57,330 bases of DNA from an uncultured Planctomycetia bacterium (GCA_964534705.1 CAZHPY010000001.1:1-57330); one strand, 5' to 3'; counted from the first letter of the stretch, positions 14,451 through 53,833 are shown. Numbers and translations: made by a program. The notes: generated by a model not told the origin, from the sequence alone.

Positions 14451-15217
14451 AGCCTTCCTTGCATGCCTATCAGTTTATCGTGCTTAGCCAGTATGCGTTT
14501 CAGATAATTTATGAGCGTAAAATACTCATTGATCGTACGGAGAATATTGATCTTGCTTGCCCCTTTTTTCCTGCCGTAATCATAAACGAACGGTATCTCT
14601 GCTATATTTTTTGTCAAAAGCGATAATTTAACAAGAAGCTCGGCATTAGCTACGAACCCCTTGGACTGAATCAGCCCAAACGGTCCAAAATATTCTGATG
14701 CTTTCCTGAGTATGGCTGCACGATAAGCCCGAAAAAAGATCGTGTAGTCGCGAACGGTCCCTACCGGAAAAAAGGTCCTCATCATCCGGTTGGCACAATG
14801 ACTGAATATGAGCCTTGGCAACGGAAAATTAACATAGCCGCCGGCCGGAAGATACCGCGAAGCCACAACGATATCCGCTTTTCCACCCACGATAATATCA
14901 GTCATTGGCAGGACCAGCTCCTGTTCGCTGGTCTGGTCGCTTTCCATAATAACCACTGCATCATCGTCCTTTGCCTCTTTCAATGCTTCATGGATACCGG
15001 CTGAAAAAACAGCGCCAACATTCATATTGATGACCGAACCCGTGATCACCAGATCGTCTCTTTGCAGTGTTTTAAGAAGCTCCATCGACCCGTCGGTAGA
15101 TCCGTCGTTAACCACTACAATACGGTACGGCCTGCCCACCATGGCCTTACGAATACCGGCAATAAGGCCTGGCAGATTTTCCTTTTCGTTGTACATCGGT
15201 AAGATAAAATAGACCAT
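14447..15217 (-). CDS. GT2, soluble DPM1-like polyprenyl-phosphate sugar synthase
   Basis: 256-aa ORF with ILPMYNEKEN and VVNDGSTDGS motifs and no TM segments. It shares a 1-nt overlap with the upstream GT-C-like gene. Confidence 0.75.
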   Translation of the reverse strand: MVYFILPMYNEKENLPGLIAGIRKAMVGRPYRIVVVNDGSTDGSMELLKTLQRDDLVITGSVINMNVGAVFSAGIHEALKEAKDDDAVVIMESDQTSEQELVLPMTDIIVGGKADIVVASRYLPAGGYVNFPLPRLIFSHCANRMMRTFFPVGTVRDYTIFFRAYRAAILRKASEYFGPFGLIQSKGFVANAELLVKLSLLTKNIAEIPFVYDYGRKKGASKINILRTINEYFTLINYLKRILAKHDKLIGMQGRL

Positions 15218-16656
15218 TATTTTTCCTTTCGATAGATCTGCCAGTTCTTACTGTAAAATACCGCACACCATCCCCGGTTCCGGTCAGGGATGTCACTGCC
15301 AAAACGACGGGAGAAGACATAGAACGCTTCTGCGGGCATGTCTTCAGCCAAAGAAGCTATTTTAAAGTCGCTTACATTCAGACCGTAACTTCTGTTCAAA
15401 TGTGCCGGAATTGCACCGGACGGTTCATCTGCGTTCGAGAAAACCATGCGTTGACGGCTTGCGGCTTGAAAATCAGCGTTGTTCCGAACCCATTCCATTA
15501 GATTCCGTGTATCATAATTATACACGGATTCCCTCGCCAATGCGTACTGGCAAACCAGTATATTCAACAATAAACTTCCGATTATAGCTGACACCTGAAT
15601 TAATATGTTTGCTTTATGCAATTCCCTGGTGAGCAATACCGCGGCTGCAAAAGCAAAAAATATCCCAAGTGGCCCTGCATAATAAGATAATGTATTCCAG
15701 GGAAGTAAAATAAACAAAAATGAACAATACAAAAGGACCCCCAGTAATGCTCCGTAGGCCTCCTTATCGGAATATCGACTTGCAAATACCCTCCATGACA
15801 ACTTTCGGATGCTTAGGGCAAAAAGAAACGTTGCCGCCGCGATCCATGGTATATGATTCAGCAGGTCTTTCTTGATCCAGGATTGAAAATTACCGGATAT
15901 TTTTCCGATATCAAAGAAAGAAAAATGAGCAGTATAACTGCCGCGCAAAAGAGTTTTTACGCTTATACCATAACAAAGCGATATTATAAGAATGACAATG
16001 CTCCACTGCCAGATCCTCCGTCCGATCGAAGGTATAAAACGACCCGCGATCAATCCCGCAAGGCCAAGAGCAACTCCACAAGCAATAAATGGCTCTTTAG
16101 CGCCGAATGCGACTATCAGGAAAAACACCCCCAATATTCCATTGCGCCAACTTATAATATTTGATACTGAAGTAAGCATGCTAAAAAATAAATGCAGGCT
16201 GATCCCGCAAAAAATAAGCCCCAGGATCTCCTGTGATGATAAGAAAAAAAACGCATCGTAAAAATAATGAAACGACAGCGCTATGGCGCCAAATAGGAAG
16301 GATGTCAACGGCTTCTCAGTGGCCCGGTAAGCCAATACCCCCCACACCGCAAGCATCGATACTATCTCGACCCATTTGGCAATATAAAACAATTGAGGAG
16401 CATCCTGAAAGATCGTATAAAGAAAAGCCGAGTGAAGCACAAACGTCGGACGAAAGATACCCCATCGGCACAGACCACAAAAATATCCCCAAAAGCCTGT
16501 CAATGGATGTGCCACGCCGCGTAAGATCGTCGCATCATCCATGAGCCCCCAATACCACTTATGCAAAATAAAACTTAATAGGATCATCGCCAACGGCACC
16601 ACAACAGGGAGTGCCCATAATGCAACCTGTAGAATATCTTTTTTTCTACTTTCCAT
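15217..16656 (-). CDS. Polytopic GT-C-fold-like membrane glycosyltransferase (ArnT/PMT-like)
   Basis: 479-aa hydrophobic ORF with an acidic loop motif, GLMDDATIL, after TM1. It is paired with the DPM1-like GT2. Confidence 0.5.
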   Translation of the reverse strand: MESRKKDILQVALWALPVVVPLAMILLSFILHKWYWGLMDDATILRGVAHPLTGFWGYFCGLCRWGIFRPTFVLHSAFLYTIFQDAPQLFYIAKWVEIVSMLAVWGVLAYRATEKPLTSFLFGAIALSFHYFYDAFFFLSSQEILGLIFCGISLHLFFSMLTSVSNIISWRNGILGVFFLIVAFGAKEPFIACGVALGLAGLIAGRFIPSIGRRIWQWSIVILIISLCYGISVKTLLRGSYTAHFSFFDIGKISGNFQSWIKKDLLNHIPWIAAATFLFALSIRKLSWRVFASRYSDKEAYGALLGVLLYCSFLFILLPWNTLSYYAGPLGIFFAFAAAVLLTRELHKANILIQVSAIIGSLLLNILVCQYALARESVYNYDTRNLMEWVRNNADFQAASRQRMVFSNADEPSGAIPAHLNRSYGLNVSDFKIASLAEDMPAEAFYVFSRRFGSDIPDRNRGWCAVFYSKNWQIYRKEK

Positions 16657-16679: not shown

Positions 16680-17573
16680 CTAAACTTTACGCGCATATAT
16701 TTCCATAAAATCGCCTAATGCAAAAGTAACATAGCTATTGTTAATGAAAGGTACATTCGATAATAACCGCCCTAATAAACGCCAGATACCCCTCATTGCT
16801 TCCAATTTATAGGCAAGATACCGCACGCTGATCGTATGCCGATAGACACGCATACTCAAAACTTCAAATCCGCACTTATTTAAATAAGCGCGGATCGTTT
16901 GTCTGTCAAAATAATAGATATGCATCTTCATAAGCCATGGCCAGCTTCGCCCCATAATACGGGCAAAGAGGCTTCCGATATCCATCGTTGAAAGCGCAAC
17001 GACCCCGCCTTGCCGAAGCACTTTATGGCAAGTCTTTAACGCGGACATCGGATCGTCCAGGTGCTCTATGACATCCCACATAGTCACAACATCAAAATCT
17101 ATATCCAAATCATTTGCCTGCTCATAAGTCCCATGATCAATAATTATATCAAAAATCTTTTTTGCCTTACCGACACACCACGATGACGGCTCAATCCCGC
17201 GCACATCCCATCCGTCTTTACGGGCAAGATCCGCAAAGAACCCTATTCCGGCGCCGATATCTAGCAGGCGACCCGGAGAACTAATGCGCGACAAAGACCT
17301 TATGTTACGGCTAAATGTCCGCAGCCGTCCATCTAATTCCTTTTCGTAGACCGGATCTTCGGTTTTAGCGTATTCCTGCTCTAATTCACATGCCTCAGGC
17401 CGAGGCGAGCTGTATACAAGCCCGCATTGTTGGCAACGGACAATTCTATAATGATCCCCATGCCCCAGGCTTGTGCATGAGTAAGTATTTACAGTATTCT
17501 CAGAGGAAACAGTTGATGGAAAAACCAATTTACTATCAACTGAACCACAAAAATTGCATGAATGAATTTTCAT
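16680..17573 (-). CDS. Class I SAM-dependent methyltransferase with an N-terminal Cys4 zinc-ribbon
   Basis: Contains CNFCGS...CQQCG and the SAM motif LLDIGAGIGFF. I chose the start at MKIHSCNFCGS (17573) because it forms an ATGA overlap with the upstream stop. The track ORF extends to 17627. Confidence 0.85.
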   Translation of the reverse strand: MKIHSCNFCGSVDSKLVFPSTVSSENTVNTYSCTSLGHGDHYRIVRCQQCGLVYSSPRPEACELEQEYAKTEDPVYEKELDGRLRTFSRNIRSLSRISSPGRLLDIGAGIGFFADLARKDGWDVRGIEPSSWCVGKAKKIFDIIIDHGTYEQANDLDIDFDVVTMWDVIEHLDDPMSALKTCHKVLRQGGVVALSTMDIGSLFARIMGRSWPWLMKMHIYYFDRQTIRAYLNKCGFEVLSMRVYRHTISVRYLAYKLEAMRGIWRLLGRLLSNVPFINNSYVTFALGDFMEIYARKV

Positions 17574-19009
17574 ATGCGGTCCATGGTTTGCCACCGATAG
17601 AAAGCAACAATACCGACACAAACCCAAAAAGGAAAAGCTGTATAAGGAAGCTCCAAAAAAACTGAAAAGTTCGCCACGACCATACCAAAAATTACAGTAG
17701 ACACCAATACCCCCCCCTCAACCGACCGCAAGCGTACAAAATCCCGTATACACAGCACCACAAACCAAAGAAATACCCCTATAGCCGCAAATCCGATAAC
17801 CCCTCCCCGGTAAATTATATGCAGCCAGGAGTTATGCGGAGCGATCCACCCGTCCCGGCGCCAATCATCATGCGCCCACCTTAAGATCTCCACTGAACGC
17901 GACCGCTGAGGGCGTCCGAAACTGAACCCAAAAAAAGCTTTTTTGTGTACCAAATCAGATATCATGTCTCTCCAAATAAAATAACGAAACAATATATTGT
18001 TATATGCAGTAGTTAAAGGGCGTGGCGCGTCGTTCTTTAACTGATCTTCTTTTGGCTGTTCCGCAGACAGCTTAATAGAGCCTATTGTCTTTGGAAGCGG
18101 CGTATCCGGATTATAGGCCCTCGCTTCAATAGGAATAGATATATAGGCATTTTTTTCGCTGTCAATTTTATTTTCATACTTCATATAAAGTTTCTTGACC
18201 TCCGCAATATTAAACAATGAGCGGACTGCGTTCCGGTCCGCAAATGCAAAAATGAGGCTGACCAAAATAACACCTACGGCCATCCCCATCCATTTGTTCT
18301 TACGGATTTTTCTGGATAGGAAAGGAAAGAAAAAAATAGCTGTAAATAAAACCGCCGAAGACAATCCAACGAGGTCAGAGCGGACCTGGCAATAAAAGAC
18401 TCTTCCCTTCAATACAAATGCGATCGCAATCGTTAAAAAAATCCACCTTATCCATAGACTGCCTATATTGGGGAGAAAAATAACAAAGAAGACGACCGCT
18501 ATATAGCCGACATAAACACCTGCTTCCAGGAAAGCAAACGTTAACAGGATAACAAAAAAAACAACTCCAAGTAATTTTTGACGAATAAATTTTTTTTTAT
18601 CTGCGCTGGCTATGGCCTGATCCGTTAAGCTCAGATCTCTAATCGCTAAAAACACTATCATGGAGATGAAAGGATAATAAAAGAGTGCCGCATTCCTAAA
18701 AGCGAACGCCCCACTCTCGAAATATCCAAATACGGATTTCCAAATTATCCATAATATATAAATCGTGACTCCGGCCCTGAGAGGCCTGGGTAAAGAAAGG
18801 TCAAAAAAGAATCTCCAGCCATACAGAAAAAAACAGATGGCCATGACGATCTCTCCGATAAATATTGGAAAGTTCGGGCCGGGAACAAATAAATGGACTT
18901 CGGCAAAAGAAGATTTAAAGATAGAATAGAGCGCGCTAATCCCGCCTATAATAATTAAGACCGAATAAGCCGTCGCACGCCTCATGATAAGACTGAATGC
19001 TTTATTCAT
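17570..19009 (-). CDS. Wzy_C / O-antigen ligase-family polytopic membrane protein (polymerase, ligase or O-oligosaccharyltransferase)
   Basis: 479-aa ORF with many TM spans and a periplasmic loop followed by PHNSWLHIIYRGGVIGF, typical of the Wzy_C domain. Confidence 0.65.
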   Translation of the reverse strand: MNKAFSLIMRRATAYSVLIIIGGISALYSIFKSSFAEVHLFVPGPNFPIFIGEIVMAICFFLYGWRFFFDLSLPRPLRAGVTIYILWIIWKSVFGYFESGAFAFRNAALFYYPFISMIVFLAIRDLSLTDQAIASADKKKFIRQKLLGVVFFVILLTFAFLEAGVYVGYIAVVFFVIFLPNIGSLWIRWIFLTIAIAFVLKGRVFYCQVRSDLVGLSSAVLFTAIFFFPFLSRKIRKNKWMGMAVGVILVSLIFAFADRNAVRSLFNIAEVKKLYMKYENKIDSEKNAYISIPIEARAYNPDTPLPKTIGSIKLSAEQPKEDQLKNDAPRPLTTAYNNILFRYFIWRDMISDLVHKKAFFGFSFGRPQRSRSVEILRWAHDDWRRDGWIAPHNSWLHIIYRGGVIGFAAIGVFLWFVVLCIRDFVRLRSVEGGVLVSTVIFGMVVANFSVFLELPYTAFPFWVCVGIVAFYRWQTMDRI

Positions 19010-22225: not shown

Positions 22226-23698
22226 TCAAATACGCTTCAAACGGTTAAATAACTTTCTCAAAAAAACAACCAATCTTAGATCGTATAAATGCTCATACCA
22301 GCCGTATTTAAACCGTAGCTTTATGAGAAAAAACAGCGGAGACAATACAATACGCTTTAAAAAGTTCATCTTCTGGAAACTCTTGCTATAAATAGCTGTT
22401 AAAAGATACGCGTTCTGTGTAAGGAACAGATAGCGTCGATCGATCCATGGATAATTAAAATTTTTGCTAAAAACCATACCCCCTTCTTCCGGCCTATATT
22501 TAATCGCCCACTCTTCAAAGGATGATGGTTCATAATACCGATATTTTTCTTTTATGCTCTCGTACAGCTCGCCTCCGGGATAAACACGGAAGAATTGAGG
22601 GCCGATGATCCGCGCGCGAGGGGTCTGCTCTATAGCATATTTGGCGAGATCTAAAGTCTTGCGATACGACTCTATGGTCTCCCCCGGAACGCCTATAATA
22701 AATGAATAGTTTGGATAAACCTGGGGAACATTCCTGAACTCACTGATAAGCGAGCGGACATTTTCCACCTTTATACCCTTTTTTAAACTATCCAATATTG
22801 TTTGCGAACCGCTTTCGAGCCCGAATTTGAGCCATTCACAGTTTACGCTTGCCAACTTTTTCAAGAAAGCACGATCTAAATAGCCGGAACGATAGCAATT
22901 AGCATGGCATGAGGAGGTCCATTTAAAACTGAATTTATTCTCTTTGTATGCGGCAATAAACTCTTCGACTCTTTTTGAGGATAGGAAAAAATTGTCATCG
23001 CGGAAATATATATGGCGGGGATCATGCTTATGAACAATATGCTTTATTTCATTTAGAAATTCCTCCATGGGACGCGGGCGCCATTTTTGACCGCATACAG
23101 CGTTAAAGCAGAATGTGCATCGATAAGAACACCCCCTCCCTGAAAGTATCTGGATAGACCTGGAAAAGTTATCCTGAGTTGAGGCCGATAACAATTTGTA
23201 ATTAATATCATAAAAAGCGACTGGTTCCGGAGAGTGTGTCCTGATAACGTTTCCGTTCTTTTTATATACCAATCCCGGGACATTATCATAGCCCATTCTT
23301 CCGGAAACAACCTCTTCGAATAAACGCCAGATAGTTTCTTCCCCTTCACTGAATGCGACAAAATCGATATTTTTGTATGCACATGTTTGTTCCGGTTGCA
23401 AGATGGCATGCGGACCGCCAACTATAATAGGTTTATCGGGGTAAGTTTCTTTTATACGATCTACCACCTCTTTCATAGAAGTAACGTCAGTGGTCATCAT
23501 GCTAACACCGACAAGCTTTGCATTACTGATCAGATCGTTTAAGATCGTAAAGAAATCTGTTTTAGGATGTTCGCTTGCGTCCAGGATCTTTACATCCAGG
23601 CCGCGCACATTCGTTAAGTAACTTCCTATCGCCAGCGCCCCCCAGGGATAATTGATGAACCTGCTTCCTGTATCAGGGGTGATCAACAAAACATCCAT
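22226..23698 (-). CDS. B12-binding-domain radical SAM enzyme (class B, probable methyltransferase), copy A
   Basis: 490-aa ORF. The N-terminal Rossmann-like cobalamin-binding domain contains DVLLITPD...IIVGGPH. The radical SAM cluster motif is SGRGCSYRCTFC. Confidence 0.85.
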   Translation of the reverse strand: MDVLLITPDTGSRFINYPWGALAIGSYLTNVRGLDVKILDASEHPKTDFFTILNDLISNAKLVGVSMMTTDVTSMKEVVDRIKETYPDKPIIVGGPHAILQPEQTCAYKNIDFVAFSEGEETIWRLFEEVVSGRMGYDNVPGLVYKKNGNVIRTHSPEPVAFYDINYKLLSASTQDNFSRSIQILSGRGCSYRCTFCFNAVCGQKWRPRPMEEFLNEIKHIVHKHDPRHIYFRDDNFFLSSKRVEEFIAAYKENKFSFKWTSSCHANCYRSGYLDRAFLKKLASVNCEWLKFGLESGSQTILDSLKKGIKVENVRSLISEFRNVPQVYPNYSFIIGVPGETIESYRKTLDLAKYAIEQTPRARIIGPQFFRVYPGGELYESIKEKYRYYEPSSFEEWAIKYRPEEGGMVFSKNFNYPWIDRRYLFLTQNAYLLTAIYSKSFQKMNFLKRIVLSPLFFLIKLRFKYGWYEHLYDLRLVVFLRKLFNRLKRI

Positions 23699-23708
23699 GC
23701 CGCTCCCA

Positions 23709-24377
23709 TTAAGGTTTCTTTTGTGCCCTGCAGACTATCTCTCCTTCGGCGTTAAAACCCATCGTTTCCACGCAATAGCCGGCGCGCACTAACTCGTCTT
23801 TCAGCATAGCGCGTGTGTACTCGCGAAAATGGGTTGTGTCACTTAAATATGGCAAACCCAGGTAGATCAATAGCTGCGTCCGCCAGTTCTCCTGGCTAGG
23901 AACACAAATGAGAAGACGCGAAGCATTAATTCGCTTAAGAAAAGCGACGGGGTCCTCGATATGCTCGAGAAGATGAGAAAGGATGCATACGTTATAGCCT
24001 GCTTCCCTAAAAAAACCGGTAAAGTCAAATTTCCTCAGGTCCGCCTGTACGAACTTTACATTCCCATCGCGCTGGGACATTTTCCAATGCCGCACAAGCT
24101 TCGGGTCAGAGTCAATGCCATATCCTTCTTTGATATATGAAGCGATCTTATTCAGAATAAGTCCGGTACCACAACCTATATCAATAACAACATCTTCCGG
24201 AGAAACATTCTCGGCAAAAAATTCGTAGCGATAGTTAAAAATGTTCTTTGGGTGGATCCCCTTGAAAAATCGTATCAGGAACCGTTCGAAGAGCCGCCTT
24301 TCCACCCAATTTCTTGTTTGACTATACAGCCTGATTATTCCGCGCATCATTTTACTCTTTCCCGCTTCCGCCATCAT
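23709..24377 (-). CDS. Class I SAM-dependent methyltransferase
   Basis: 222-aa ORF with SAM-binding motif I VVIDIGCGTGLI and the downstream ILSHLLEHIEDP. Confidence 0.85.
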   Translation of the reverse strand: MMAEAGKSKMMRGIIRLYSQTRNWVERRLFERFLIRFFKGIHPKNIFNYRYEFFAENVSPEDVVIDIGCGTGLILNKIASYIKEGYGIDSDPKLVRHWKMSQRDGNVKFVQADLRKFDFTGFFREAGYNVCILSHLLEHIEDPVAFLKRINASRLLICVPSQENWRTQLLIYLGLPYLSDTTHFREYTRAMLKDELVRAGYCVETMGFNAEGEIVCRAQKKP

Positions 24378-24386
24378 CGCTCCCTT

Positions 24387-25187
24387 TTAGTCTTTTTTAA
24401 ACACCAGAAGAATCGAGTGTCCGGCGAAAGCCGAAAATAAATAATAATTCATCATTCTGATCAACCGCGCCCACAAACGCTTGGATTTATACACGTTTGA
24501 TAAAAAAGGGTGAAGCAAGGATATCTCCTCCATCAGCCCCTTGCTCGGGTCAAATGCCTTCTTTGACAGCAGCTTAAACCCGAACGGCATTACCTTATTA
24601 ACCACAAAGTCTGCGCACAAAATAAACTGATAAAACGCCTGATCATCTTTTTTATTTTCTTCAAAAGAGTAGAGGCCGCATGTTTTTTTTAACCGCCGTA
24701 ACGGATTAAGGTTCGGGAAACTTAAGAACAAGCAGCCCCCTGGCTTCAGTACTCTTGCCGCTTCTGCAATAATCCCGTCAAAACCTTCCTGAAAGTGCTC
24801 GATAACCCCCAGCGACCAGTATCCATCAAAAAAAGAATCTGGAAAATTTAAGGCCCTGACGTCCTGAATAGACAGCTTTAATCCTGGAAACGCCTTCTTT
24901 GATCTTTCAATCGTGTTTTCCTCGAAATCCACTCCGTAAGCATCGAAGCCCCAAGATGAAAGGCCGAAGACTATGTTGCCGGCGCCACAACCCGCATCAA
25001 TGACTTTTCCTCCGGGCTTGATATATCTGCGCGCGCAAGCCCTGATAAACCAGTTGTTCTTCCCGTCTTCAACAAATGAATGCAGGTCCTGCGATCCCCA
25101 CAATAAGTTCCAGAACGCTTTTCCAGAAACTTTCTGAAGCTCGACTAATCTGTCATTTTTTGTGTCATAATATCTGCATCTATCCAT
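24387..25187 (-). CDS. Class I SAM-dependent methyltransferase
   Basis: 266-aa ORF with VIDAGCGAGNI, a YGVDF acidic loop and LKPGGCLFLSF. Confidence 0.85.
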   Translation of the reverse strand: MDRCRYYDTKNDRLVELQKVSGKAFWNLLWGSQDLHSFVEDGKNNWFIRACARRYIKPGGKVIDAGCGAGNIVFGLSSWGFDAYGVDFEENTIERSKKAFPGLKLSIQDVRALNFPDSFFDGYWSLGVIEHFQEGFDGIIAEAARVLKPGGCLFLSFPNLNPLRRLKKTCGLYSFEENKKDDQAFYQFILCADFVVNKVMPFGFKLLSKKAFDPSKGLMEEISLLHPFLSNVYKSKRLWARLIRMMNYYLFSAFAGHSILLVFKKD

Positions 25188-25218
25188 ACCTTACCTGCGC
25201 CGCCTGCCAACATTACGC

Positions 25219-27135
25219 CTATATCAACACCTTTTCACCCATTATTGTCTTAAAGAAATCGGTCAGTCTCAAGGTAGCATTACCATCTAACGGCCCAACG
25301 TGTTCCTGCACATGCTTAAGGCCACGCGCGATCTGGGCCAGACGGAAATCATTGTCATAAATAAGCTTTTCAAATACAGGAGCGGCGTTCTCATCCGGAG
25401 AGATATGAACAACTCCCTTGTTTTCCAAGTAATCGAACCCCTGCCCTTCGAATCTTTCCAGTAATCCCTTGTACTGAATACTTACAACGGGGGTTCTTGC
25501 CAACATAGCTTGCCATATCGCAGTCGTTATAGGAACAGATACTATATCGGCCGCTGAACATAGAGAGAAAAGATTGTAATTATCGACTACCCGCCCCTTG
25601 CATCCCCACAACTTAATCCATTTTTTCACATCTTTTGTGGCCTGAAGAGGATGCGTTTTGACTATTAATTGTGCACCCTTAATGGCATTAACAGCCTGAC
25701 CTGTATTCTTAAAAAGTGCTTCGACGTCTCTTATTGTAAACGGACTGGCAGCGAAAAAAGAAATTAAAAGCACTATCGGTTTTTCAAACGACAACCCAAG
25801 ATCAGAACAAACTTTGCGCCTCGCTTCTTCCTTCGAGCTTATGACGGCCCTGTCAACGAGCGTATCTCCCACAGCGCATATGCGCTCTTTCCCATACTGT
25901 CCCAAGAAACTATTATAAAAAACATCTCCGGAAACGGCCATCCACTCCTGAGAACGCACAACCACGTTATTGTAAGCGTTCGAGGAAAGCGCATAATACG
26001 CCACTGTTGGTATCTTACGCTGACGGCAGATCAAGGTAACAGCCCTGGGCAGTTCCCAATCCTCAAAACAAACGACCATGTCGGGCTGACATCGTTCAAC
26101 CGCTCGTTTTGCAACTTCCACATAATAAGCAGAAAACCGGCCTCCTTCCAAACAGGAGTTTCTCAAGATAGGCTCGGCGTAAGGAAATATCGGTACGCCA
26201 TACCAACTATGTCCTAAGCGTAATGGAGCGTGCTTCTTTAATTGATCCCATCCGCGGCGAGCCGCGCCCTCCACGCTTCGTGTCAACTTAACTCCCTCTC
26301 TTGTATTTATCCACTCGTGGCTATAACTACATTTTACCCCGGCTCGTCTTAAATTTTCCGTTAAGGAAACCCTTTTTTCGGCGAGGAGATATATATCTGC
26401 ATCCAAATTTTGACGCAATGAAGGTAACGCCGCAACGAGCCTCTCCACCGAACGGTCGATCCATCCAATAAATAGAATGCGAGGGCGCGTCTTCTTCTCT
26501 GAAAAAATACCGCCCTCTACTTTAGACGGCAGTCGCTTAGCAAAAGAACGGATTAATAATCGATAATCCGGGATGCCTCTCCTGTAAGCCGTTAAACCAA
26601 AGAGAGACGTGAAGAGCCCGTGTCTCTGATCAAGAAGCGGCCCTTCTTTTGCCGCGACCGCTTTAACAATGCCAGCAACCGGTCCTCGGCCAATGGTCCG
26701 GACCGTATCAGGGGACTCTTTTTCGATCACGCCCTTGATAGTGTTAACATAGATCAAGTTATTAAAAAATAATGGGAGAAGCCATCGGAGCTCTATCGTA
26801 CTCAATAGCGGGATATCGCGATGCACTAAACCATATTCCATGCCTAATTCTTTAGACTGGGAATAAAGCGCGTCCGCGAAAGAATGGAGCGAGGAAAAAT
26901 CAACGCTGTTCCATGCGGCAACATTTTCTATTCCATAATTGTATCGCCGCAATCCTTCGTCCTTAACTTTTTCCAGGAAAAGAGCGCTACTGCAGATACC
27001 CCCCACCCCGTCAAGCCCGGAACGTTTTGATAAAAAAGCTAAATAAGAAAGCGCGATATCCTTTGCCTTGAAACGTAAGCCGCAGTGGTTACTATTGGCG
27101 AAAAAATCATCTGTGAAGAGAATTATTTTTTTCAT
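25219..27135 (-). CDS. Large orphan cytoplasmic protein whose C-terminal half is GT-B-like with an HP motif; candidate CMP-ulosonate (NulO)-dependent transferase
   Basis: 638-aa ORF with no TM segments. IVKTHPL (His codon at 25651-25653) is followed about 35 aa later by DIVSVPITTAIWQAMLARTPVVS. This resembles the HP/nucleotide-binding region of capsule-synthesis (KpsS/KpsC-like) and bacterial sialyltransferase GT-B enzymes. Recognised by eye only. Confidence 0.4.
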   Translation of the reverse strand: MKKIILFTDDFFANSNHCGLRFKAKDIALSYLAFLSKRSGLDGVGGICSSALFLEKVKDEGLRRYNYGIENVAAWNSVDFSSLHSFADALYSQSKELGMEYGLVHRDIPLLSTIELRWLLPLFFNNLIYVNTIKGVIEKESPDTVRTIGRGPVAGIVKAVAAKEGPLLDQRHGLFTSLFGLTAYRRGIPDYRLLIRSFAKRLPSKVEGGIFSEKKTRPRILFIGWIDRSVERLVAALPSLRQNLDADIYLLAEKRVSLTENLRRAGVKCSYSHEWINTREGVKLTRSVEGAARRGWDQLKKHAPLRLGHSWYGVPIFPYAEPILRNSCLEGGRFSAYYVEVAKRAVERCQPDMVVCFEDWELPRAVTLICRQRKIPTVAYYALSSNAYNNVVVRSQEWMAVSGDVFYNSFLGQYGKERICAVGDTLVDRAVISSKEEARRKVCSDLGLSFEKPIVLLISFFAASPFTIRDVEALFKNTGQAVNAIKGAQLIVKTHPLQATKDVKKWIKLWGCKGRVVDNYNLFSLCSAADIVSVPITTAIWQAMLARTPVVSIQYKGLLERFEGQGFDYLENKGVVHISPDENAAPVFEKLIYDNDFRLAQIARGLKHVQEHVGPLDGNATLRLTDFFKTIMGEKVLI

Positions 27136-27142
27136 TTTAAGC

Positions 27143-27784
27143 TCATTTTATGGCCACTGCTATCAGTTTGTGAGAGAAACACATAGCTGGAAAGAGTTTA
27201 AATAATATTCCACCTGTCGGAATGACCTCAATATGACCGAAACATTTTTCTAGCAGATCCTTAAGTTGCCCCGCGTCATAGAAGGTTACATGTGTAGGAT
27301 CGTCGCGTAGCATGCGCAAATTACGGTATACCACCGCGTTAATTATATCGTAAAAGCGCTTGATCGGATAATTAGGCGTCATTACTACTAATTTTCCGCC
27401 GGTTCTTAAAACTCGGTGCAATTCACTGATACACGCTGCCGATTTATGGGATAAGATATGCTCGATTACCTGATCGCTGATGACGAGATCGAAGCTTGAA
27501 TCCGGATAAGGCAACGGCCTGTTCTCATCAATAAGTAGCGCCCGCTCCCAGCCGATTTCCCGACACCTCTTTATGCGAAGTGATGAAATATCACAACCGA
27601 AAATATTATCGGCTCCATATCGATCGGATAAAAAGGAGAAATACTTACCATCTCCGCAGCCATGGTCCAAAACTGTCATGGGTTTACTGGGCACATGTTT
27701 ATCAAGAACGCGGACAAAACCATCCGCGACCATTCCTTTCATGGAACGTTCTATTGCGTATTTCTCAAAGTCTTGATGGCCCAT
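27143..27784 (-). CDS. Class I SAM-dependent methyltransferase
   Basis: 213-aa ORF with VLDHGCGDGKY, FDLVISDQVIEHI and LRTGGKLVV. Confidence 0.85.
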   Translation of the reverse strand: MGHQDFEKYAIERSMKGMVADGFVRVLDKHVPSKPMTVLDHGCGDGKYFSFLSDRYGADNIFGCDISSLRIKRCREIGWERALLIDENRPLPYPDSSFDLVISDQVIEHILSHKSAACISELHRVLRTGGKLVVMTPNYPIKRFYDIINAVVYRNLRMLRDDPTHVTFYDAGQLKDLLEKCFGHIEVIPTGGILFKLFPAMCFSHKLIAVAIK

Positions 27785-27796
27785 ATTATCCCTTAT

Positions 27797-28933
27797 TTAA
27801 AAATGTATATCGCAAAACTTCTTCTGGATAGACGTCTTCCAAAAAGAAGGCGACGAAAGCATCTTCATGAACATATTGGCGCTGTTACCGCGTCCAAACG
27901 AAAAATCCACCGAGCGGCGGACTATGCATTTATTCAAAGCAGCTGCGATCTCTTTTTCATCTTCTTTAACATTAAGAACCGAGTCATTCTCTATGCGCGA
28001 CGATTGCCTGGTGCCAATATTGATGCAGGGCACCCCGAATACCGCGGCTTCACGGATACCGGAACTCGAGTTCCCGATAATAAGATTGGCGTGCTTTAGA
28101 AGACTTATATAGTACTCAAAACGCAGAGAACAGAAAACACGAAAATTAGAGTTGTTCCTCAAAGGACCTAACGCGTTATAAACGACTTCCGACCCCTTAT
28201 CATTATTAGGCTCAATAACAACGAATTTCTTTTTAGAATGGAGCAAGGCGGAGACTACTGTTTTAATATTATCCGGGAGCATCGCGATCTCTGTCGTTAC
28301 TGGGTGATAACAAAAAATACCGTACTCCTCGAACGGAATATCATAACGTTTCTTTACTTTCTGTAAAGAAGGCAATAACCGTGACTTCATGATATCAACT
28401 TCCGGAGAACCTATTACGTGGATCGAATCCTGCGACTCCCCCAACTGAATAAGGCGTTTCCGGGAATTTTGATTAGCCACGCAATGAACATGAGATAGTT
28501 TCGACACAGAGTGCCGGATCAAGTCATCGACCGTACCGGAAAGCTCCCCTCCTTCTATATGGGCTACTAAGATATTATTCAGGACGCCTACGATCGCCCC
28601 GGCCAGCGCCTCAGCCCTGTCACCGTGGACGACTATCAAATCCGGACGAAAAACACGGACGTAGTTAGAAAGCCCCTGGATCGTATTGGCTACTATGAGG
28701 TCCATATCGGAGCTGGAGCTTTCCGTTTGGTTCATAAAAAGAAATACGTTCTTAAAATCTGTTTTCAGTATTTCTTCGTATGTCATCCCATGCCGTAAAA
28801 GGACGTGCATGCCAGTCGCAAATATCTTGCATTCGAACTTGCTCGAACGTTCCACTGTCTGCATTAGCGCCTTCAGTTTTCCAAAATCTGCCCTCGTTCC
28901 TGTTATAAAAAGGATATTTTTCTTTTTAGACAT
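27797..28933 (-). CDS. neuC: Hydrolysing UDP-sugar 2-epimerase (NeuC / LegG family)
   Basis: 378-aa ORF with ILFITGTRADFGKL, VHGDRAEALAGA and VAHIEGGELSGTVDD, typical of the hydrolysing 2-epimerase subfamily. Confidence 0.9.
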   Translation of the reverse strand: MSKKKNILFITGTRADFGKLKALMQTVERSSKFECKIFATGMHVLLRHGMTYEEILKTDFKNVFLFMNQTESSSSDMDLIVANTIQGLSNYVRVFRPDLIVVHGDRAEALAGAIVGVLNNILVAHIEGGELSGTVDDLIRHSVSKLSHVHCVANQNSRKRLIQLGESQDSIHVIGSPEVDIMKSRLLPSLQKVKKRYDIPFEEYGIFCYHPVTTEIAMLPDNIKTVVSALLHSKKKFVVIEPNNDKGSEVVYNALGPLRNNSNFRVFCSLRFEYYISLLKHANLIIGNSSSGIREAAVFGVPCINIGTRQSSRIENDSVLNVKEDEKEIAAALNKCIVRRSVDFSFGRGNSANMFMKMLSSPSFWKTSIQKKFCDIHF

Positions 28934-28962
28934 AATACCTCACATTAAAATTAAAAAATGCT

Positions 28963-30006
28963 CTATTTGATATCCTGCCAGGACAATTGAGTATTGACCG
29001 GGAGATCCCTATTGAACGCCTTCCCAAGGACATTCTCGAAATCCCGGGCTTTGATCGAACCGTTACCCGGCCTTTTGCACCAAATATTCTCAGGGCTCAG
29101 GACTTCACCCTTTTTCACATCTTTTATAGTAACAACACAGGCATAAGCAAAATTTATTGTTGGCTGCTCTTCCTTTAAAATGTCTTTTGACCCGCCTAAA
29201 GCAGCAAAGACCGCCCGTGAGCCATCAATGAGATCTTTAAGCTTTACTGGATCGATAGATAACGAGATATCTGGCCCGGGCCAGCTTTTATCTGACGTAA
29301 AATGCTTTTCCAATACCTTCGCACCCAGGGCAACCGCCGCAAAACATGTATAATTACCCGTCGAATGGTCGCTCAATCCCAAGATGGCGTCAGGAAAAGC
29401 CAAGGAAAGCTCTGATATCGCCCCTAGTCTCACCTTGTTATATGGCGTGGGATAGACAGAAGTACAATGCATCAGCACAAATGGGATACGGGCCATCCTG
29501 AGGATCTCCACGGCAGGCCGCACAGTCTCCACGCTATTCATTCCAGTGCTCAAGATTACAGGTTTTTTATACAAAGCAATGTGTTTTATCAACGGATAAT
29601 TATTGCACTCACCCGATCCGATCTTATATGCACAAACATCCATCTTCTCAAGACGTACTGCTGCCGCACGCGAAAAAGGCGTGGAGAGAAATATCATCCC
29701 CTTGGATTCCACGTATTTTTTTATCTTACGTTCCTCGACTTCGGTCAAAGCACACCTAGACATAATATTCCAGATGCTCTCTTTTGCATTACCAGGGATC
29801 ACATTATTAGGGATCATTTCATCCTCGATTACATGCGACTGGAATTTAACGCATTCGCACCCTGCCATATGAGCATCATCAACCATGCGGACAGCCTTTG
29901 CAAAACTGCCATTGTGATTGATCCCTATCTCAGCTATGATCAAAGGAGAATGGCCATTCCCTATGGTGCGGCCTCCGATAACCATCTCTTTTTTTATACC
30001 TGCCAT
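28963..30006 (-). CDS. neuB: Nonulosonic acid synthase (NeuB / LegI / PseI family) with a C-terminal SAF domain
   Basis: 347-aa ORF with PLIIAEIGINHNGS, GLSDHS, and a C-terminal SAF-like segment, VVTIKDVKKGEVLSPENIWCKRPGNG. Confidence 0.9.
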   Translation of the reverse strand: MAGIKKEMVIGGRTIGNGHSPLIIAEIGINHNGSFAKAVRMVDDAHMAGCECVKFQSHVIEDEMIPNNVIPGNAKESIWNIMSRCALTEVEERKIKKYVESKGMIFLSTPFSRAAAVRLEKMDVCAYKIGSGECNNYPLIKHIALYKKPVILSTGMNSVETVRPAVEILRMARIPFVLMHCTSVYPTPYNKVRLGAISELSLAFPDAILGLSDHSTGNYTCFAAVALGAKVLEKHFTSDKSWPGPDISLSIDPVKLKDLIDGSRAVFAALGGSKDILKEEQPTINFAYACVVTIKDVKKGEVLSPENIWCKRPGNGSIKARDFENVLGKAFNRDLPVNTQLSWQDIK

Positions 30007-30027
30007 GATCCTACCCTTAGCCGCCCT

Positions 30028-30672
30028 TCATTTAACCAATTCGACAAAATTATTCAATATCTGCAATCCTACCATAGCACTCTTTTCAGGATGGAACTGG
30101 CAACCGTAAATATTATTTTTATGAACAGCGGAACAAAATGCATTTCCGCCATAATCAGTAGTACTTAATATGTCACCGGCATCATACGGCTGCGCCGTAA
30201 AACTATGCACAAAATAAACATTGCTCTGATCTTGCATGTTATTAAATATAGTCCCGAGCCACCTATCTTTCTTTGGCTCATTTATTCTGTTCCATCCAAC
30301 ATGCGGTATCCTATCATTACAGCCTTTTTTCAGAGATAATCTCACTACCTTTCCATTTAGCAGACCCAAACCTTTTGTCAGGCCGAATTCCTCCCCCTCA
30401 CCCATTAACATCTGCATGCCCAGACAAATCCCCAAAAACGGCTTCCCGGTCTCAACGAACCGATAGATCGTATCAATAAGGCTGTATTTCTTTAAATTAT
30501 CCATCCCTGCCTTAAACGCCCCTACGCCCGGCAAGACCGCAGCGTCATACGAGAAGATATCTTTATTATCCCTGCTTAATGTCGGATCTGCCCCTACTTT
30601 TTTAAGCCCCATCAGTATACTTTTTACGTTTCCTATATCATAATCGATAACAAAGATGCGTTTTCTTTTCAA
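30028..30672 (-). CDS. HisH-like glutamine amidotransferase subunit, copy 2 (in the NulO cassette)
   Basis: 214-aa ORF with IFVIDYDIGNVKS, GICLGMQML, HVGWN and GCQFHPEKS. It is clearly divergent from copy 1. Confidence 0.9.
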   Translation of the reverse strand: MKRKRIFVIDYDIGNVKSILMGLKKVGADPTLSRDNKDIFSYDAAVLPGVGAFKAGMDNLKKYSLIDTIYRFVETGKPFLGICLGMQMLMGEGEEFGLTKGLGLLNGKVVRLSLKKGCNDRIPHVGWNRINEPKKDRWLGTIFNNMQDQSNVYFVHSFTAQPYDAGDILSTTDYGGNAFCSAVHKNNIYGCQFHPEKSAMVGLQILNNFVELVK

Positions 30673-31427
30673 ATTCTCACCTCTACGCTATTTCTACATA
30701 AACGATCCTTGATCTCGACGATCGAGGAAACATCATAATGCAGCATCGAAGCTACTGCTACGGCGTTAACCCCCGTGTTCAGTATCAGATCGCTGATCTG
30801 TTCCGGCGTGCCGGCGCCTCCGCTGGCAATAACCGGTATCGATACGCGTTCCGTCACCTTCTTTATGAGATCAACATCAAATCCTTTTTTCGTACCTTCC
30901 TGGTCAACGGAGGTCAAGAGTATCTCTCCGACGCCAAGGTCTTCAAGCCTCTTTACCCACTCTAAAACATCTACGCCGGTGCACTCTCTACCGCTGTCAA
31001 TATACGCTTCCCAGGAGTTCCCCTTCCTTTTGGCTTCGACTGAACCGACAATGCACTGGGAACCAAATATCCTTGAGGCTTCCTTTACAAAATCCGGCGT
31101 CTTTATAGCCTGTGTATTTATAGCCGTTTTATCCGCTCCGGCCCTTAAGGCTTTTTCGATATCGCCTATAGTCCTTAATCCTCCGCCTATCGTCAATGGC
31201 ACAAAAATCTCCTCGCAGGCTTTTTCAATCAAATGAAAGAGACCGTTCCTGTTGTATAGGCTCGCAACTACATCCATATATATTAATTCGTCAGCGCCAC
31301 CAGTATAATATTTGCGAGCAAAGTCTTCCGGCTTGCCTAAAACCCTGACCCCTTCCAGATGGATCCCTTTTACAAGATTAGGGCCTTTAATATCGAGCCG
31401 GGGGATTATCCTGATCTTCCTGTTCAT
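30669..31427 (-). CDS. HisF-like cyclase subunit, copy 2 (in the NulO cassette)
   Basis: 252-aa ORF with IIPRLDIKGPNLVKG, IGGGLRTIGD and IASGGAG. It has 4-nt overlaps with both neighbours. Confidence 0.9.
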   Translation of the reverse strand: MNRKIRIIPRLDIKGPNLVKGIHLEGVRVLGKPEDFARKYYTGGADELIYMDVVASLYNRNGLFHLIEKACEEIFVPLTIGGGLRTIGDIEKALRAGADKTAINTQAIKTPDFVKEASRIFGSQCIVGSVEAKRKGNSWEAYIDSGRECTGVDVLEWVKRLEDLGVGEILLTSVDQEGTKKGFDVDLIKKVTERVSIPVIASGGAGTPEQISDLILNTGVNAVAVASMLHYDVSSIVEIKDRLCRNSVEVRI

Positions 31428-32845
31428 TTTATATAGTGCCTCGCGCCCCTGAAACTACTATTGTCTCCGAAGTAGAGCTCTCTAAAATCGTTTATCATGG
31501 ATTCTGCTCTTGCCATATCTTTTGACGTATGCATATAGTGATCCGTTATAAGTTCTTTATTGGCGTCAAAAAGAAGGTTGTAAAATTTATCTTCGGGTAT
31601 GTCGGTAAAATTGACAGTGACAAGATCAGAGTTTTTAAAAAGAGTGAAGAAATCTTCGGCTCCGGAAATATATTTTTTCTTTATGGCTTCGTAATAAAGA
31701 TCGCAGCCCGGATAAGGCGTAACAGGCCTTACGGTTCGGAGCTGGTCATAAGTATTATACTTCTTTATAAGCTCCACATTGCTCCTGAGGGACTCTTCAG
31801 TGTCTCCTATATTGCCCCACAGGAAGTTAAGGCCAAGTCCTATGCCGATCCTTCCGGCAATTTCTGCGGCCCGTATATTCTGTCCGACAGTTGTCCTTTT
31901 TTTCATAAGGTCTAACACTGTCTGGTCAGAGGATTCCATTCCAAAATTGAGGAACTGGCAACCGCAATCTTTCAGGGCAACTGCAAGTTCTTCGTCAAAA
32001 AGATCTACCCTGGCATTGCAGGAAAATTTGATCTCCAAGCCCTTATCTTTTAAGGCGTCCCTGAATTCGTATAACCTTTTTTTTGAGAATATGAAAAGCT
32101 CGTCAAGCATAGTGAAATAGTTAACGCCGTAATTTCTTTTCAAAAAATCTATCTCTTTGATTACATTTTCCACGCTCCTGACTCGTATGCCATCCTCCAT
32201 CCTATAACAGAAATTACATCTATTTATACATCCCCTGCTCGATATCATGCCAAGCACAATATCTTTACTATCAGCGCGGAAAGGCTTAAGGCAGGATGTG
32301 TATTTATCCATCGGAAAAAGCGACCACTCCGGAAACGGAATAAGGTCAAGATTTTTTATGGGCTTACGCCTTTCATTCAAAACGGGTCGGCCATCTTGCA
32401 CATAAGCTATGCCTTTCACTTTTGCAAGATCGCCCCGGTTTTCCTTACATCGCACCAGTTCCGTGATCGTCTCCTCAGCTTCTCCTATTACAATGATATC
32501 TGCCTTTGTTTTCTTTAAAATATAATCATGGACAGGTGATGGCCCTGGCCCGCCGAGAATAAGCCATGCGTTTTTCTTGTGAAGACCTACCATCTCGCAG
32601 AGCGGCACTATCGTCTCAATGAACCGCGATGCCAGAAAGCCTATTCCTATCATGTCGAAGTCATTATTATCCAGAAAAACGGCAAGCTCATCATTTGTAT
32701 AATGAAATACGTCCTGGCAGTACACTTCAACATCTATACCGTTATTCCTGAGTATGCCAGAGAGATAGGCCGGTCCCAGAGGAAAATGATTATCATCCTG
32801 ATAAAGGTCGTGTATTATAAAAAGAACTTTTGGTCGCCTATTCAT
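31424..32845 (-). CDS. B12-binding-domain radical SAM enzyme (class B), copy B, embedded in the NulO cassette
   Basis: 473-aa ORF. The N-terminal cobalamin-binding-like domain contains KVLFIIHD...LILGGPGP. The radical SAM motif is SSRGCINRCNFC. Confidence 0.85.
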   Translation of the reverse strand: MNRRPKVLFIIHDLYQDDNHFPLGPAYLSGILRNNGIDVEVYCQDVFHYTNDELAVFLDNNDFDMIGIGFLASRFIETIVPLCEMVGLHKKNAWLILGGPGPSPVHDYILKKTKADIIVIGEAEETITELVRCKENRGDLAKVKGIAYVQDGRPVLNERRKPIKNLDLIPFPEWSLFPMDKYTSCLKPFRADSKDIVLGMISSRGCINRCNFCYRMEDGIRVRSVENVIKEIDFLKRNYGVNYFTMLDELFIFSKKRLYEFRDALKDKGLEIKFSCNARVDLFDEELAVALKDCGCQFLNFGMESSDQTVLDLMKKRTTVGQNIRAAEIAGRIGIGLGLNFLWGNIGDTEESLRSNVELIKKYNTYDQLRTVRPVTPYPGCDLYYEAIKKKYISGAEDFFTLFKNSDLVTVNFTDIPEDKFYNLLFDANKELITDHYMHTSKDMARAESMINDFRELYFGDNSSFRGARHYIK

Positions 32846-33542
32846 ATTGCGCCTTAAGCAGTAATTCTGCCAGTTTCATATCAAGCTCGCTGTCTATGTC
32901 AATAGACCTGCCGGCCGGCATTATATATGCGAATGTTCTTCTGCCAAAAAACCCTTTAACCTTTTTAAGATAATCTATATACGAGGCGTAGATGACACCG
33001 TTTAAGCGATAAGACGCAGGGAATTCCTGCCTGTTCTTATTTTTCATTTTCTGACTCATGAAATCCTTCATGCACCCATCAGGCGGAAGCAGGTTTACCC
33101 ATGAAGGGGGATAACCCGTATCGCATACCGAGATAATAGCCTGCGCATCCTTAACAAACATTTCCTCTATTGAATTATCGATATCCTCGACGGCCCTAAG
33201 GGGTGACGTAGGTTGTAAAAGCACTATTATATCGAACAGCTCATGCTTCTTCCTGAAAAAATCGGTCGTATGCAATATAACATCTACCATGGGAGTTTTA
33301 TCTCCGGCTAATTCTACTGGCCTGACAAATGGAACGAGTGCGCCATATTTAAGCGAGATGCTTGCTATCTCCTCATCATCCGTAGAAACTACAGTCTTAT
33401 CAAGATACTTGCTTTGGAGCGCGCTTTCTATGGTCCACGCAATAACTGGTTTGCCACAAATTTCCCGGATATTTTTTCTCGGAACGCCCTTAGACCCGCC
33501 TCTCGCAGGAATAATACCCAATATCTTCTTGCCCTTATACAT
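32838..33542 (-). CDS. neuA: CMP-nonulosonic acid synthetase (acylneuraminate cytidylyltransferase, NeuA/LegF family)
   Basis: 234-aa ORF with the N-terminal motif LGIIPARGGSKGVPRKNIREICGKPVIAWTI and the later LLQPTSPLR. Confidence 0.9.
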   Translation of the reverse strand: MYKGKKILGIIPARGGSKGVPRKNIREICGKPVIAWTIESALQSKYLDKTVVSTDDEEIASISLKYGALVPFVRPVELAGDKTPMVDVILHTTDFFRKKHELFDIIVLLQPTSPLRAVEDIDNSIEEMFVKDAQAIISVCDTGYPPSWVNLLPPDGCMKDFMSQKMKNKNRQEFPASYRLNGVIYASYIDYLKKVKGFFGRRTFAYIMPAGRSIDIDSELDMKLAELLLKAQYE

Positions 33543-44112: not shown

Positions 44113-44180
44113 TGAACATATTCTATCAGACAGCAGAGAAAAGTCAATTAATTATATGATATTATTAGCATATAATATTA
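44113..44180 (-). promoter_or_regulatory. AT-rich gap with an inverted repeat and TATAAT-like boxes upstream of the regulator gene; candidate promoter/operator
   Basis: ATATTAT (44159-44165), 6 nt, ATAATAT (44172-44178) form a perfect 7-bp inverted repeat. The minus strand also shows TATAAT and TAGAAT hexamers before the ATG at 44112. Confidence 0.3.
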
Positions 44181-53382: not shown

Positions 53383-53385
53383 ATC

Positions 53386-53832: not shown

Positions 53833-53833
53833 C

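Follow-up and report, generated by a model that had tools for sequence, protein, structure and literature searches.

Introduction

The biosynthetic enzymes for legionaminic acid, pseudaminic acid, and their nine-carbon relatives (nonulosonic acids, NulOs) are well known, and the transferases that install these sugars are the poorly known step. Only a handful of such transferases have been characterised, and new glycosyltransferase (GT) families are still being defined, GT118 (KpsS1) in 2024 and GT140 (KrkA) in 2026. Among the closest described systems are the pseudaminic and legionaminic acid (Pse/Leg) transferases of Tannerella forsythia, which are supported by knock-outs and not by enzymology, are GT-B/TagB-like, and carry a D/E-D/E-G motif and a His-Pro (HP) motif; their genes lie just downstream of those for the cytidine monophosphate (CMP)-activated NulO, with a methyltransferase gene alone between them in one strain (PMC5420450). 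As that paper cites it, both motifs are conserved and functionally important in bacterial sialyltransferases (Freiberger 2007, cited in PMC5420450). In the retaining ulosonate transferases of families GT99, GT107, GT118, and GT140, the GT-B fold is strongly modified: the N-terminal domain is reduced and displaced, and there is an alpha-helical subdomain (PMC12887879). Here, we describe a gene for a 638-amino-acid (aa) protein in a 57,330-nucleotide (nt) stretch of DNA from an uncultured Planctomycetia bacterium (GCA_964534705.1, CAZHPY010000001.1:1-57330), which as a whole we call the window. The window is a single minus-strand glycan locus, and the 638-aa protein is probably a CMP-nonulosonate glycosyltransferase and belongs to a moderately widespread family that has so far gone undescribed. 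Because this family almost always stands beside genes for sialic-acid-like nine-carbon sugars, it probably supplies the missing enzyme that attaches the NulO to a glycan of the cell surface.

Like the T. forsythia transferases Tanf_01245 and TFUB4_00887 (both NF046086), the 638-aa protein is a GT-B protein with an HP motif and an acidic D/E-D/E pair, encoded beside CMP-nonulosonate genes. The T. forsythia proteins are about 445 aa in length, whereas the 638-aa protein is longer by an extra N-terminal domain and has Trp rather than Gly as the third residue of the acidic motif. The same replacement separates it from the GT38 (polyST), GT52, and GT80 sialyltransferases, with which it has the HP motif in common.

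Results

The 638-aa family is tied to nonulosonate biosynthesis genes

The 638-aa protein has no Pfam or NCBIfam match at E ≤ 0.01, and its sub-threshold traces are to Glyco_trans_1_4, Glyco_transf_4, and Epimerase_2. It is nevertheless not the orphan that an initial annotation of the window had taken it to be. An exhaustive HMMER search of 1.84 billion representative sequences (50% identity clusters) recovered 471 clusters at E ≤ 1e-3, of which 30 reach E ≤ 1e-30, mostly of 600 to 670 aa; one further profile-based homologue search returned six close relatives only. The homologue P0005 is 48% identical to the 638-aa protein. All named members are called "hypothetical protein," and the named sources are an Omnitrophota and a Methylacidiphilales metagenome-assembled genome (MAG).

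We profiled the family across 401 genomes sampled from the phylum of the window. A member was called strong at E ≤ 1e-27, a threshold set afterwards that splits open reading frames (ORFs) of about 600 aa from WecB/LpxB-like matches of about 380 aa. Strong members occur in 63 of the 401 genomes and NeuB (PF03102) in 236, and the two go together: NeuB is present in 61 of the 63 genomes with a strong member versus 175 of the 338 others (Fisher test, odds ratio 28, p = 1.3e-13). The family is found in about one-sixth of the sampled genomes, plus at least one Verrucomicrobiota genome.

The association extends to gene neighbourhoods. Regions of 20 kb were taken from 40 genomes, their ORFs were labelled against Pfam/NCBIfam-assigned proteins, and the 39 loci with a full-length member were counted. 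Within 10 kb of the member, NeuB is found in 29 of these loci, a CMP-transferase (CTP_transf_3) in 30, and one or the other in 35; by our naive estimate for genomes of about 1.8 Mb, NeuB would fall within 10 kb of a random gene about 2% of the time. Over the same distance, a Wzx-type flippase (Polysacc_synt_3) is present in 27 loci and is the adjoining gene in 15, while a PseG-like hydrolase is present in 15, NeuC in 7, and either of these two in 19. Independent metagenome loci agree. The homologue of the Omnitrophota MAG comes after NeuB and a formyltransferase, another comes after NeuB/CTP_transf_3 and a Wzm/Wzt pair, and for a third, NeuB lies 10 kb upstream and the next gene encodes an ATP-binding cassette (ABC) exporter.

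Model searches of the window's genome, which is 92% complete and has two NulO clusters, found no Maf/MptE-like, Capsule_synth, or Glyphos_transf protein (Capsule_synth at E ≤ 0.01); positive controls were matched for all three Pfam models. TIGR04396 ("surface carbohydrate biosynthesis protein") had no match in the genome at E ≤ 10, and NF046086 left the 638-aa gene unmatched even at E ≤ 10 and struck only an unrelated place on contig C23.

Conserved residues and a GT-B core

The initial annotation had read two stretches in the protein, IVKTHPL and DIVSVPITTAIWQAMLARTPVVS, as the HP motif and the Ser/Thr-rich helix of CMP-sugar-dependent GT-B enzymes. Both are present, beginning at residues 491 and 530, and the numbering of H495 and P496 is right. 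Three residues alone, G423, H495, and P496, do not vary in an alignment of 70 diverse members, and K493 is kept in more than 90%. With 70 of 70 homologues carrying it, the HP dipeptide cannot be put down to chance. Among the 27 closest members, the unvarying positions are W118, R228, R232, F357, E358, G423, D424, K493, H495, P496, P549, Q601, and G614. E358, present in 27 of 27, is followed by D in 21 and by E in 6, and positions 537 and 538 are always S or T. The E358-D359 pair would correspond to the D/E-D/E-G position of sialyltransferases, and it aligns with the "GD" that holds the catalytic Asp of UDP-sugar 2-epimerases; the residue after the pair is W in 15 of the 27 and G in 3 only. The close subfamily has Q542 where the broader family consensus is Glu, a column that we take to be the ribose-binding Glu position of GT4.

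AlphaFold2, run on the 70-sequence alignment, predicts a canonical GT-B core (residues ~217 to 638) preceded by an extra N-terminal Rossmann-like domain (residues 1 to 216), with a pLDDT of 94.1 and a pTM of 0.93. In the model, two Rossmann-like domains face each other across a cleft and a C-terminal helix crosses back, as in the GT-B superfamily. A Foldseek search against the PDB gave 347 matches at E ≤ 1e-3, and the top matches listed are GT-B proteins, in agreement with the first description of the protein as GT-B-like. The net basic charge and the lack of a hydrophobic stretch typical of a membrane span are consistent with its having been called soluble. The three alpha/beta units given in Table 1 were delimited from secondary structure plus weak Pfam anchors.

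The N-terminal 300 or so residues had been described as resembling nothing recognisable. This applies to the first 216, which lie outside the GT-B core; the remainder belongs to the fold. Modelled alone, the N-terminal domain has a pLDDT of 78.5 and no Foldseek match at E ≤ 1e-3, and E115 and W118 are its only invariant residues. Because hhalign aligns residues 87 to 168 with residues 296 to 377 of the GT-B N-half (P = 1e-4, probability 56%), the domain may have arisen as a duplicate of the acceptor-side domain and then degenerated, losing the E-D motif.

These features would also suit a GT-B glycosyltransferase that works in this glycan pathway with an ordinary nucleoside diphosphate (NDP)-sugar donor, for example one that adds a sugar on or next to the NulO. 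Such an enzyme would travel with NulO genes since its acceptor contains the NulO, and would evolve fast as any acceptor-specific transferase would; the association is blind to donor versus acceptor. The fold and closest relatives are those of UDP-utilising GT-B proteins, and the traces of Glyco_trans_1_4 and Glyco_transf_4 point the same way. However, the invariant K-x-H-P and the S/T-S/T pair differ from the E-x7-E signature of GT4, and Q542 replaces the Glu of the broader family, presumably the GT4 ribose-binding position. Several GT2 and GT4 enzymes of the standard kind are already encoded in the locus, and the genome model searches found no other candidate NulO transferase. We therefore regard an NDP-sugar donor as unlikely.

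Relationship to UDP-sugar 2-epimerases

The closest structures and profiles are those of the UDP-sugar 2-epimerases (PF02350). In Foldseek, the best matches are of the WecB, NeuC, and WbpI type (E = 4e-11, TM to target of ~0.7, 13% identity), followed by the generic GT-B transferases CalG1, MshA, MurG, and PglA. Against PDB sequences, single-sequence and 10-sequence-profile searches had no match, and the 70-sequence profile found a GT28 glucosyltransferase (2.5e-9) and 2-epimerases (2.4e-8). The epimerase alignment pairs F-E-D with Y-G-D, the hinge V-G-D with V-G-D, and V-K-x-H-P with F-P-V-H-P, so the two groups share the Asp that follows strand 4, the hinge, and the histidine of the HP motif. 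Unlike the 2-epimerases, the family has Lys rather than Pro two positions before the His, carries the extra 216-residue domain, evolves fast, and has lost two Glu positions. We take 2-epimerases to use three catalytic acids, the Asp in "HGD" and the glutamates in "HVEAG" and "PEE" (D95, E117, and E131 in Escherichia coli). The Asp equivalent, D359, is kept, and the positions of the HVEAG and PEE glutamates fall in the region of Y380/Y381 and R393/R394. The family appears to derive from the same stock as the UDP-sugar 2-epimerases, with the elimination chemistry lost.

This kinship raises the question as to whether the 638-aa protein is itself a NeuC/WecB-derived enzyme of the NulO pathway, either a divergent NDP-sugar hydrolase/2-epimerase (the LegG/PseG step) or a modifier of the nucleotide sugar. 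The structural and profile matches with their aligned Asp, V-G-D hinge, and HP histidine speak for it, as do the 30 of 70 diverse members that touch Epimerase_2 and the fact that only the 19 loci counted above have a PseG or NeuC of their own within 10 kb. A LegG/PseG-type role is disfavoured because NeuC or a PseG-like gene coexists with the family member in many loci (a bona fide NeuC in the window and 7 related loci, a PseG-like gene in 15) and because two of the three catalytic acids are replaced. The family also evolves much faster than true pathway enzymes. Median pairwise identity over the same pairs of loci is 24% for the 638-aa family, 27% for Wzx, 32% for the CMP-transferase, 36% for DegT, and 37% for NeuB. 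The value of 24%, near that of Wzx, therefore suggests that the family evolves like a glycan-structure-specific component. Since only about one-quarter of the NeuB-positive genomes (61 of 236) have a member, the family is not a core step of biosynthesis but an alternative among several. On these grounds we rejected the protein as a replacement for PseG/LegG, and a biosynthetic role of any such kind seems to us very unlikely.

The initial annotation had named a clear epimerase or TagF-like assignment as the outcome that would speak against a CMP-ulosonate enzyme. The 2-epimerases are indeed closest, both in structure (4e-11) and in profile (2e-8), yet the assignment is not clear, because Epimerase_2 scores 12.3 bits against a cut-off of 30.6 (E = 0.073), two catalytic acids are replaced, and many loci have a separate PseG or NeuC. 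TagF was not matched.

Relationship to CMP-ulosonate transferases and TagF-like enzymes

Similarity to known CMP-ulosonate transferases is faint. KpsC/KpsS (GT107), WbbB (GT99), KpsS1 (GT118), and KrkA (GT140) all use CMP-ulosonate donors, and a profile of the C-half aligns with KpsC (dependent on CMP-Kdo; Kdo, 3-deoxy-D-manno-octulosonate) across five distinct sequences at E = 0.014 to 0.17, weakly yet consistently. In this alignment VVKaHP lies over VKVHP and the S/T pair over V(S/T)SQ. The likeness to CMP-sugar GT-B enzymes first drawn from the HP and Ser/Thr stretches accordingly holds in part: K-x-H-P and the S/T pair define the family, and the alignment to KpsC is weak. Unlike the GT99, GT107, GT118, and GT140 enzymes, the 638-aa protein is predicted to have a canonical GT-B core; in the model the N-half is of full size and superposes on 2-epimerases.

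No match to the 638-aa protein was found with Capsule_synth (PF05159), polyST, or GT52 at E ≤ 10, nor with Glyphos_transf (PF04464). Among the 70 diverse members, besides the 30 that touch Epimerase_2, 25 touch Capsule_synth, 22 Glycos_transf_1, 19 Glyphos_transf, 9 LpxB, 5 polyST, and 1 GT52; the 27 closest members touch those models faintly only. Because diverse members touch several of these models, the family is best seen as a separate lineage among the HP-bearing GT-B families. It lies outside all of the named models tested (Capsule_synth/GT107, TagF-like, NF046086, and TIGR04396). The proposal that the protein is a NulO transferase is partly supported, by the tight association with NulO genes, the GT-B fold, and the conserved motifs, and not by membership in any of these models.

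A phosphotransferase of the TagF/TagB type, adding a polyol-phosphate or sugar-phosphate to the glycan from a cytidine diphosphate (CDP)-activated donor, would fit the GT-B-like scaffold shared with TagF/TarL, the Glyphos_transf matches of the 19 diverse members (best 4e-18) and of 2 of the 27 closest (1e-6), a weak TarL match in the 70-sequence profile search (E = 0.31), and a CDP-alcohol phosphatidyltransferase-like gene that recurs in 6 related loci, but it is the most improbable of the roles considered here, as the 638-aa protein itself does not match Glyphos_transf, the locus has no CDP-glycerol or CDP-ribitol genes, the annotated ORFs of the window include no TagD- or TarI-type cytidylyltransferase and their sole CMP-forming enzyme is NeuA-like, and NeuB and CTP_transf_3 are the genes with which the family chiefly travels. 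The T. forsythia case shows that a NulO transferase can have a TagB-like fold (PMC5420450).

Probable tailoring genes and a recurrent ABC-export module

The five genes of interest are exact minus-strand ORFs directly downstream of NeuC, where they had first been placed (Table 1). Since the gaps between them are only 7 to 31 nt, they are very probably cotranscribed with the NulO cassette. The assignments of three class I methyltransferases and a B12-domain radical S-adenosylmethionine (SAM) enzyme also stand. The methyltransferases score 64, 66, and 45 bits with Methyltransf_11 against a cut-off of 21.2. The 490-aa radical SAM enzyme scores 61 bits with the B12-binding model (PF02310) and 69 bits with Radical_SAM (PF04055), and its CSYRCTFC (CxxxCxxC) occupies residues 190 to 197, as expected of a class B (cobalamin-binding) enzyme.

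None of the four is a fixed companion of the family. The methyltransferases are at most 33% identical to one another (266-aa versus 213-aa, 33%) and have no conserved orthologues next to family members in related loci; for the 213-aa protein, the lone exception to a lack of close orthologues is a 101-bit match 11 genes from a member. The two B12-radical SAM enzymes of the window are distinct paralogues with only 25% identity. The second scores under the cut-offs of all named NCBIfam subfamilies, and beside family members in related loci its best match is 144 bits, not a close orthologue, although enzymes of this class are found in about half of these loci. The methyltransferases, together with the second B12-radical SAM enzyme, are most readily understood as variable tailoring genes. 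The methyltransferases may modify the NulO or a chain terminus, in line with the first proposal that they decorate the sugar or cap the chain, or may act on another sugar.

Another neighbour recurs. The closest relatives of the 638-aa protein lie, as WbbB does, in ABC-transporter glycan loci, and the trio of ABC exporter, methyltransferase, and double-GT4 protein seen in the window recurs with them (L001/L002, L004, L084, L085, and the P0009 contig), in some cases alongside eight to ten class I methyltransferases; we label the double-GT4 protein a WbdA-like polymerase. In four loci (L084:4312-18545, L085:2092-14281, the P0009 contig, and L003), between six and ten class I methyltransferases accompany a fused ABC exporter and a double-GT4 protein of about 680 aa, which suggests a recurring module for a polysaccharide that is heavily methylated and leaves the cell by the ABC route. 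A 425-aa Wzt-like ABC ATPase (L004:7330-8607) has room for a C-terminal carbohydrate-binding module of the type that binds O-antigen terminal caps. Most related loci have Wzx; its use by the window was considered and rejected, as no Wzx of that type is present there.

Organisation of the locus and further observations

Coordinates are collected in Table 1. The window also contains two acetamidino triads, an MBOAT protein, GT2 and GT4 enzymes, two UDP-sugar dehydrogenases, and GT-C proteins. The models do not settle whether the NeuB-type synthase makes neuraminic acid (Neu), Leg, or another NulO; the PseI model gives 228 bits against a cut-off of 340. Four ORFs of the window (3772-5289, 13626-14450, 15217-16656, and 44178-45350, of 505, 274, 479, and 390 aa) have no Pfam match at E ≤ 0.01.

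The second NulO cluster of the genome (contig C5:287-18922) has its own Wzx, two DegT genes, and a B12-radical SAM enzyme. An unlabelled 626-aa protein encoded there was considered as a paralogue of the 638-aa protein and rejected. Its likeness is confined to the C-terminal ~70 residues, which weakly resemble the nucleotide-binding region of the family (hhalign P = 1e-4), and K-P-S replaces K-x-H-P, so that there is no HP motif. It may be a different kind of transferase.

Two features of related loci may be recorded here. A family of about 617 aa with no Pfam or NCBIfam match (e.g., L078:17895-19748) recurs in 9 of the 39 neighbourhoods, and hhalign gives no relation between it and the 638-aa family. 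In locus L086, a BNR_2 (sialidase-like) gene (L086:3233-4351) lies between a CTP_transf_3 gene and three GFO/IDH/MocA oxidoreductase genes, 6 kb upstream of a distant family member.

Table 1. Features of the window and of the second nonulosonate cluster, with positions counted from the first nucleotide of the window unless a contig is named
Feature	Position	Strand	Remarks
Initiating phosphoglycosyl transferase	252-1655	minus	
WecG/TagA-family ManNAc(A) transferase	3012-3782	minus	
Wzy_C-like protein	17570-19009	minus	
B12-binding radical SAM enzyme, second	22226-23698	minus	490-aa ORF
Class I SAM methyltransferase	23709-24377	minus	222 aa; Methyltransf_23 49 bits, Methyltransf_11 45 bits
Class I SAM methyltransferase	24387-25187	minus	266 aa; Methyltransf_11 66 bits
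638-aa protein, candidate CMP-nonulosonate glycosyltransferase	25219-27135	minus	ORF; unnamed ~640-aa GT-B family, K-x-H-P
Residues 426-638, predicted GT-B C-half (nucleotide side)	25219-25860	minus	K493-x-H495-P496, T537-T538, Q542, terminal crossing helix
K493-T494-H495-P496 codons (K-x-H-P motif)	25648-25659	minus	H, P invariant 70/70
Residues 217-425, predicted GT-B N-half (acceptor side)	25861-26487	minus	Epimerase_2-like; R228, R232, F357-E358-D359, V-G423-D424 hinge
E358-D359 codons (acidic pair)	26059-26064	minus	Candidate general base; aligned to "GD" of 2-epimerases
Residues 1-216, predicted extra N-terminal alpha/beta (Rossmann-like) domain	26488-27135	minus	Poorly conserved
Class I SAM methyltransferase between neuC and the 638-aa gene	27143-27784	minus	213 aa; Methyltransf_11 64 bits
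NeuC	27797-28933	minus	TIGR03568, 402 bits; directly upstream of the five genes
NeuB-type synthase	28963-30006	minus	TIGR03569 (NeuB) 360 bits, below 399.65 cut-off
HisH/HisF-like pair	within 27797-33542	minus	Donor-making block
B12-radical SAM enzyme, first	31424-32845	minus	Donor-making block
CMP-transferase	32838-33542	minus	CTP_transf_3
Double-GT4 protein	38204-40321	minus	705 aa
Methyltransferase	40328-40969	minus	Beside fused ABC exporter
Fused ABC exporter	41002-42807	minus	
dTDP-rhamnose genes	50733-53856	minus	
Second-cluster NeuB	contig C5 4303-5424		
Second-cluster CTP_transf_3	contig C5 8728-9468		
Second-cluster unlabelled 626-aa protein	contig C5 12377-14257		

Discussion

We infer the donor, the acceptor, and the roles of individual residues of the 638-aa protein as follows. 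A cytoplasmic, peripherally acting GT-B enzyme would take the tailored CMP-nonulosonic acid produced by the adjacent NeuC, NeuB, and CMP-transferase and transfer the NulO to a lipid-linked glycan ahead of export. The C-terminal Rossmann half would bind the CMP moiety, with H495 of K-x-H-P and T537/T538 contacting the phosphate leaving group and Q542 the ribose. At the cleft end of the N-half, E358/D359 would activate the acceptor hydroxyl or, in a retaining enzyme, serve as nucleophile. Recognition of the acceptor or of the membrane surface may come from the fast-evolving N-half together with the extra domain (residues 1 to 216), and the three methyltransferases and the second B12-radical SAM enzyme would provide variable tailoring of the same glycan (O-, N-, or C-methylation).

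Several points weigh against this assignment. The enzymology is predicted only, for every member of the family. UDP-sugar 2-epimerases, rather than sialyl- or Kdo-transferases, are the closest relatives that can be detected; the similarity to KpsC is, taken alone, statistically non-significant; and no structure of KpsC/KpsS, WbbB, KpsS1, KrkA, a sialyltransferase, or TagF is among the top 50 Foldseek matches. The HP motif is no proof of a CMP donor, because 2-epimerases carry the histidine too, as presumably do TagF-type enzymes, and the third residue of the D/E-D/E-G motif is Trp in the 638-aa protein, not Gly. Finally, association cannot separate a protein that transfers the NulO from one that acts on a NulO-containing glycan, and it has exceptions: genomes G061 and G168 carry a member and no detectable NeuB, and 4 of the 39 loci have no NulO gene within 10 kb. 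The members in these two genomes (loci L056 and L069, respectively) may use another CMP-ulosonate, such as CMP-Kdo. Both members are full length, and GT9 heptosyltransferase-like genes are among the neighbours of the G061 member.

WbbB is a beta-Kdo chain-capping enzyme, and the ABC-exporter module shared by the closest relatives would allow, by analogy, a similar chain-terminating role for the 638-aa protein. It is possible, although we hold it as a tentative and rather doubtful idea, that the ~640-aa proteins constitute a new CAZy-level family of three-domain CMP-NulO transferases built on a 2-epimerase-like GT-B fold, and that the subfamily of the window caps an ABC-exported, heavily methylated polysaccharide in the manner of WbbB.

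For the poorly known step of NulO attachment, the reading of the 638-aa protein as a CMP-nonulosonate glycosyltransferase offers a concrete candidate: an unannotated family with the signature residues E358/D359, K493, H495, and T537/T538 and with the donor pathway encoded next door. If this reading is true, hundreds of "hypothetical" genes would gain an annotation, the enzymes would be a tool for the chemoenzymatic synthesis of nonulosonate glycans, and the family would represent a transferase that has arisen from the 2-epimerase branch of the GT-B fold.

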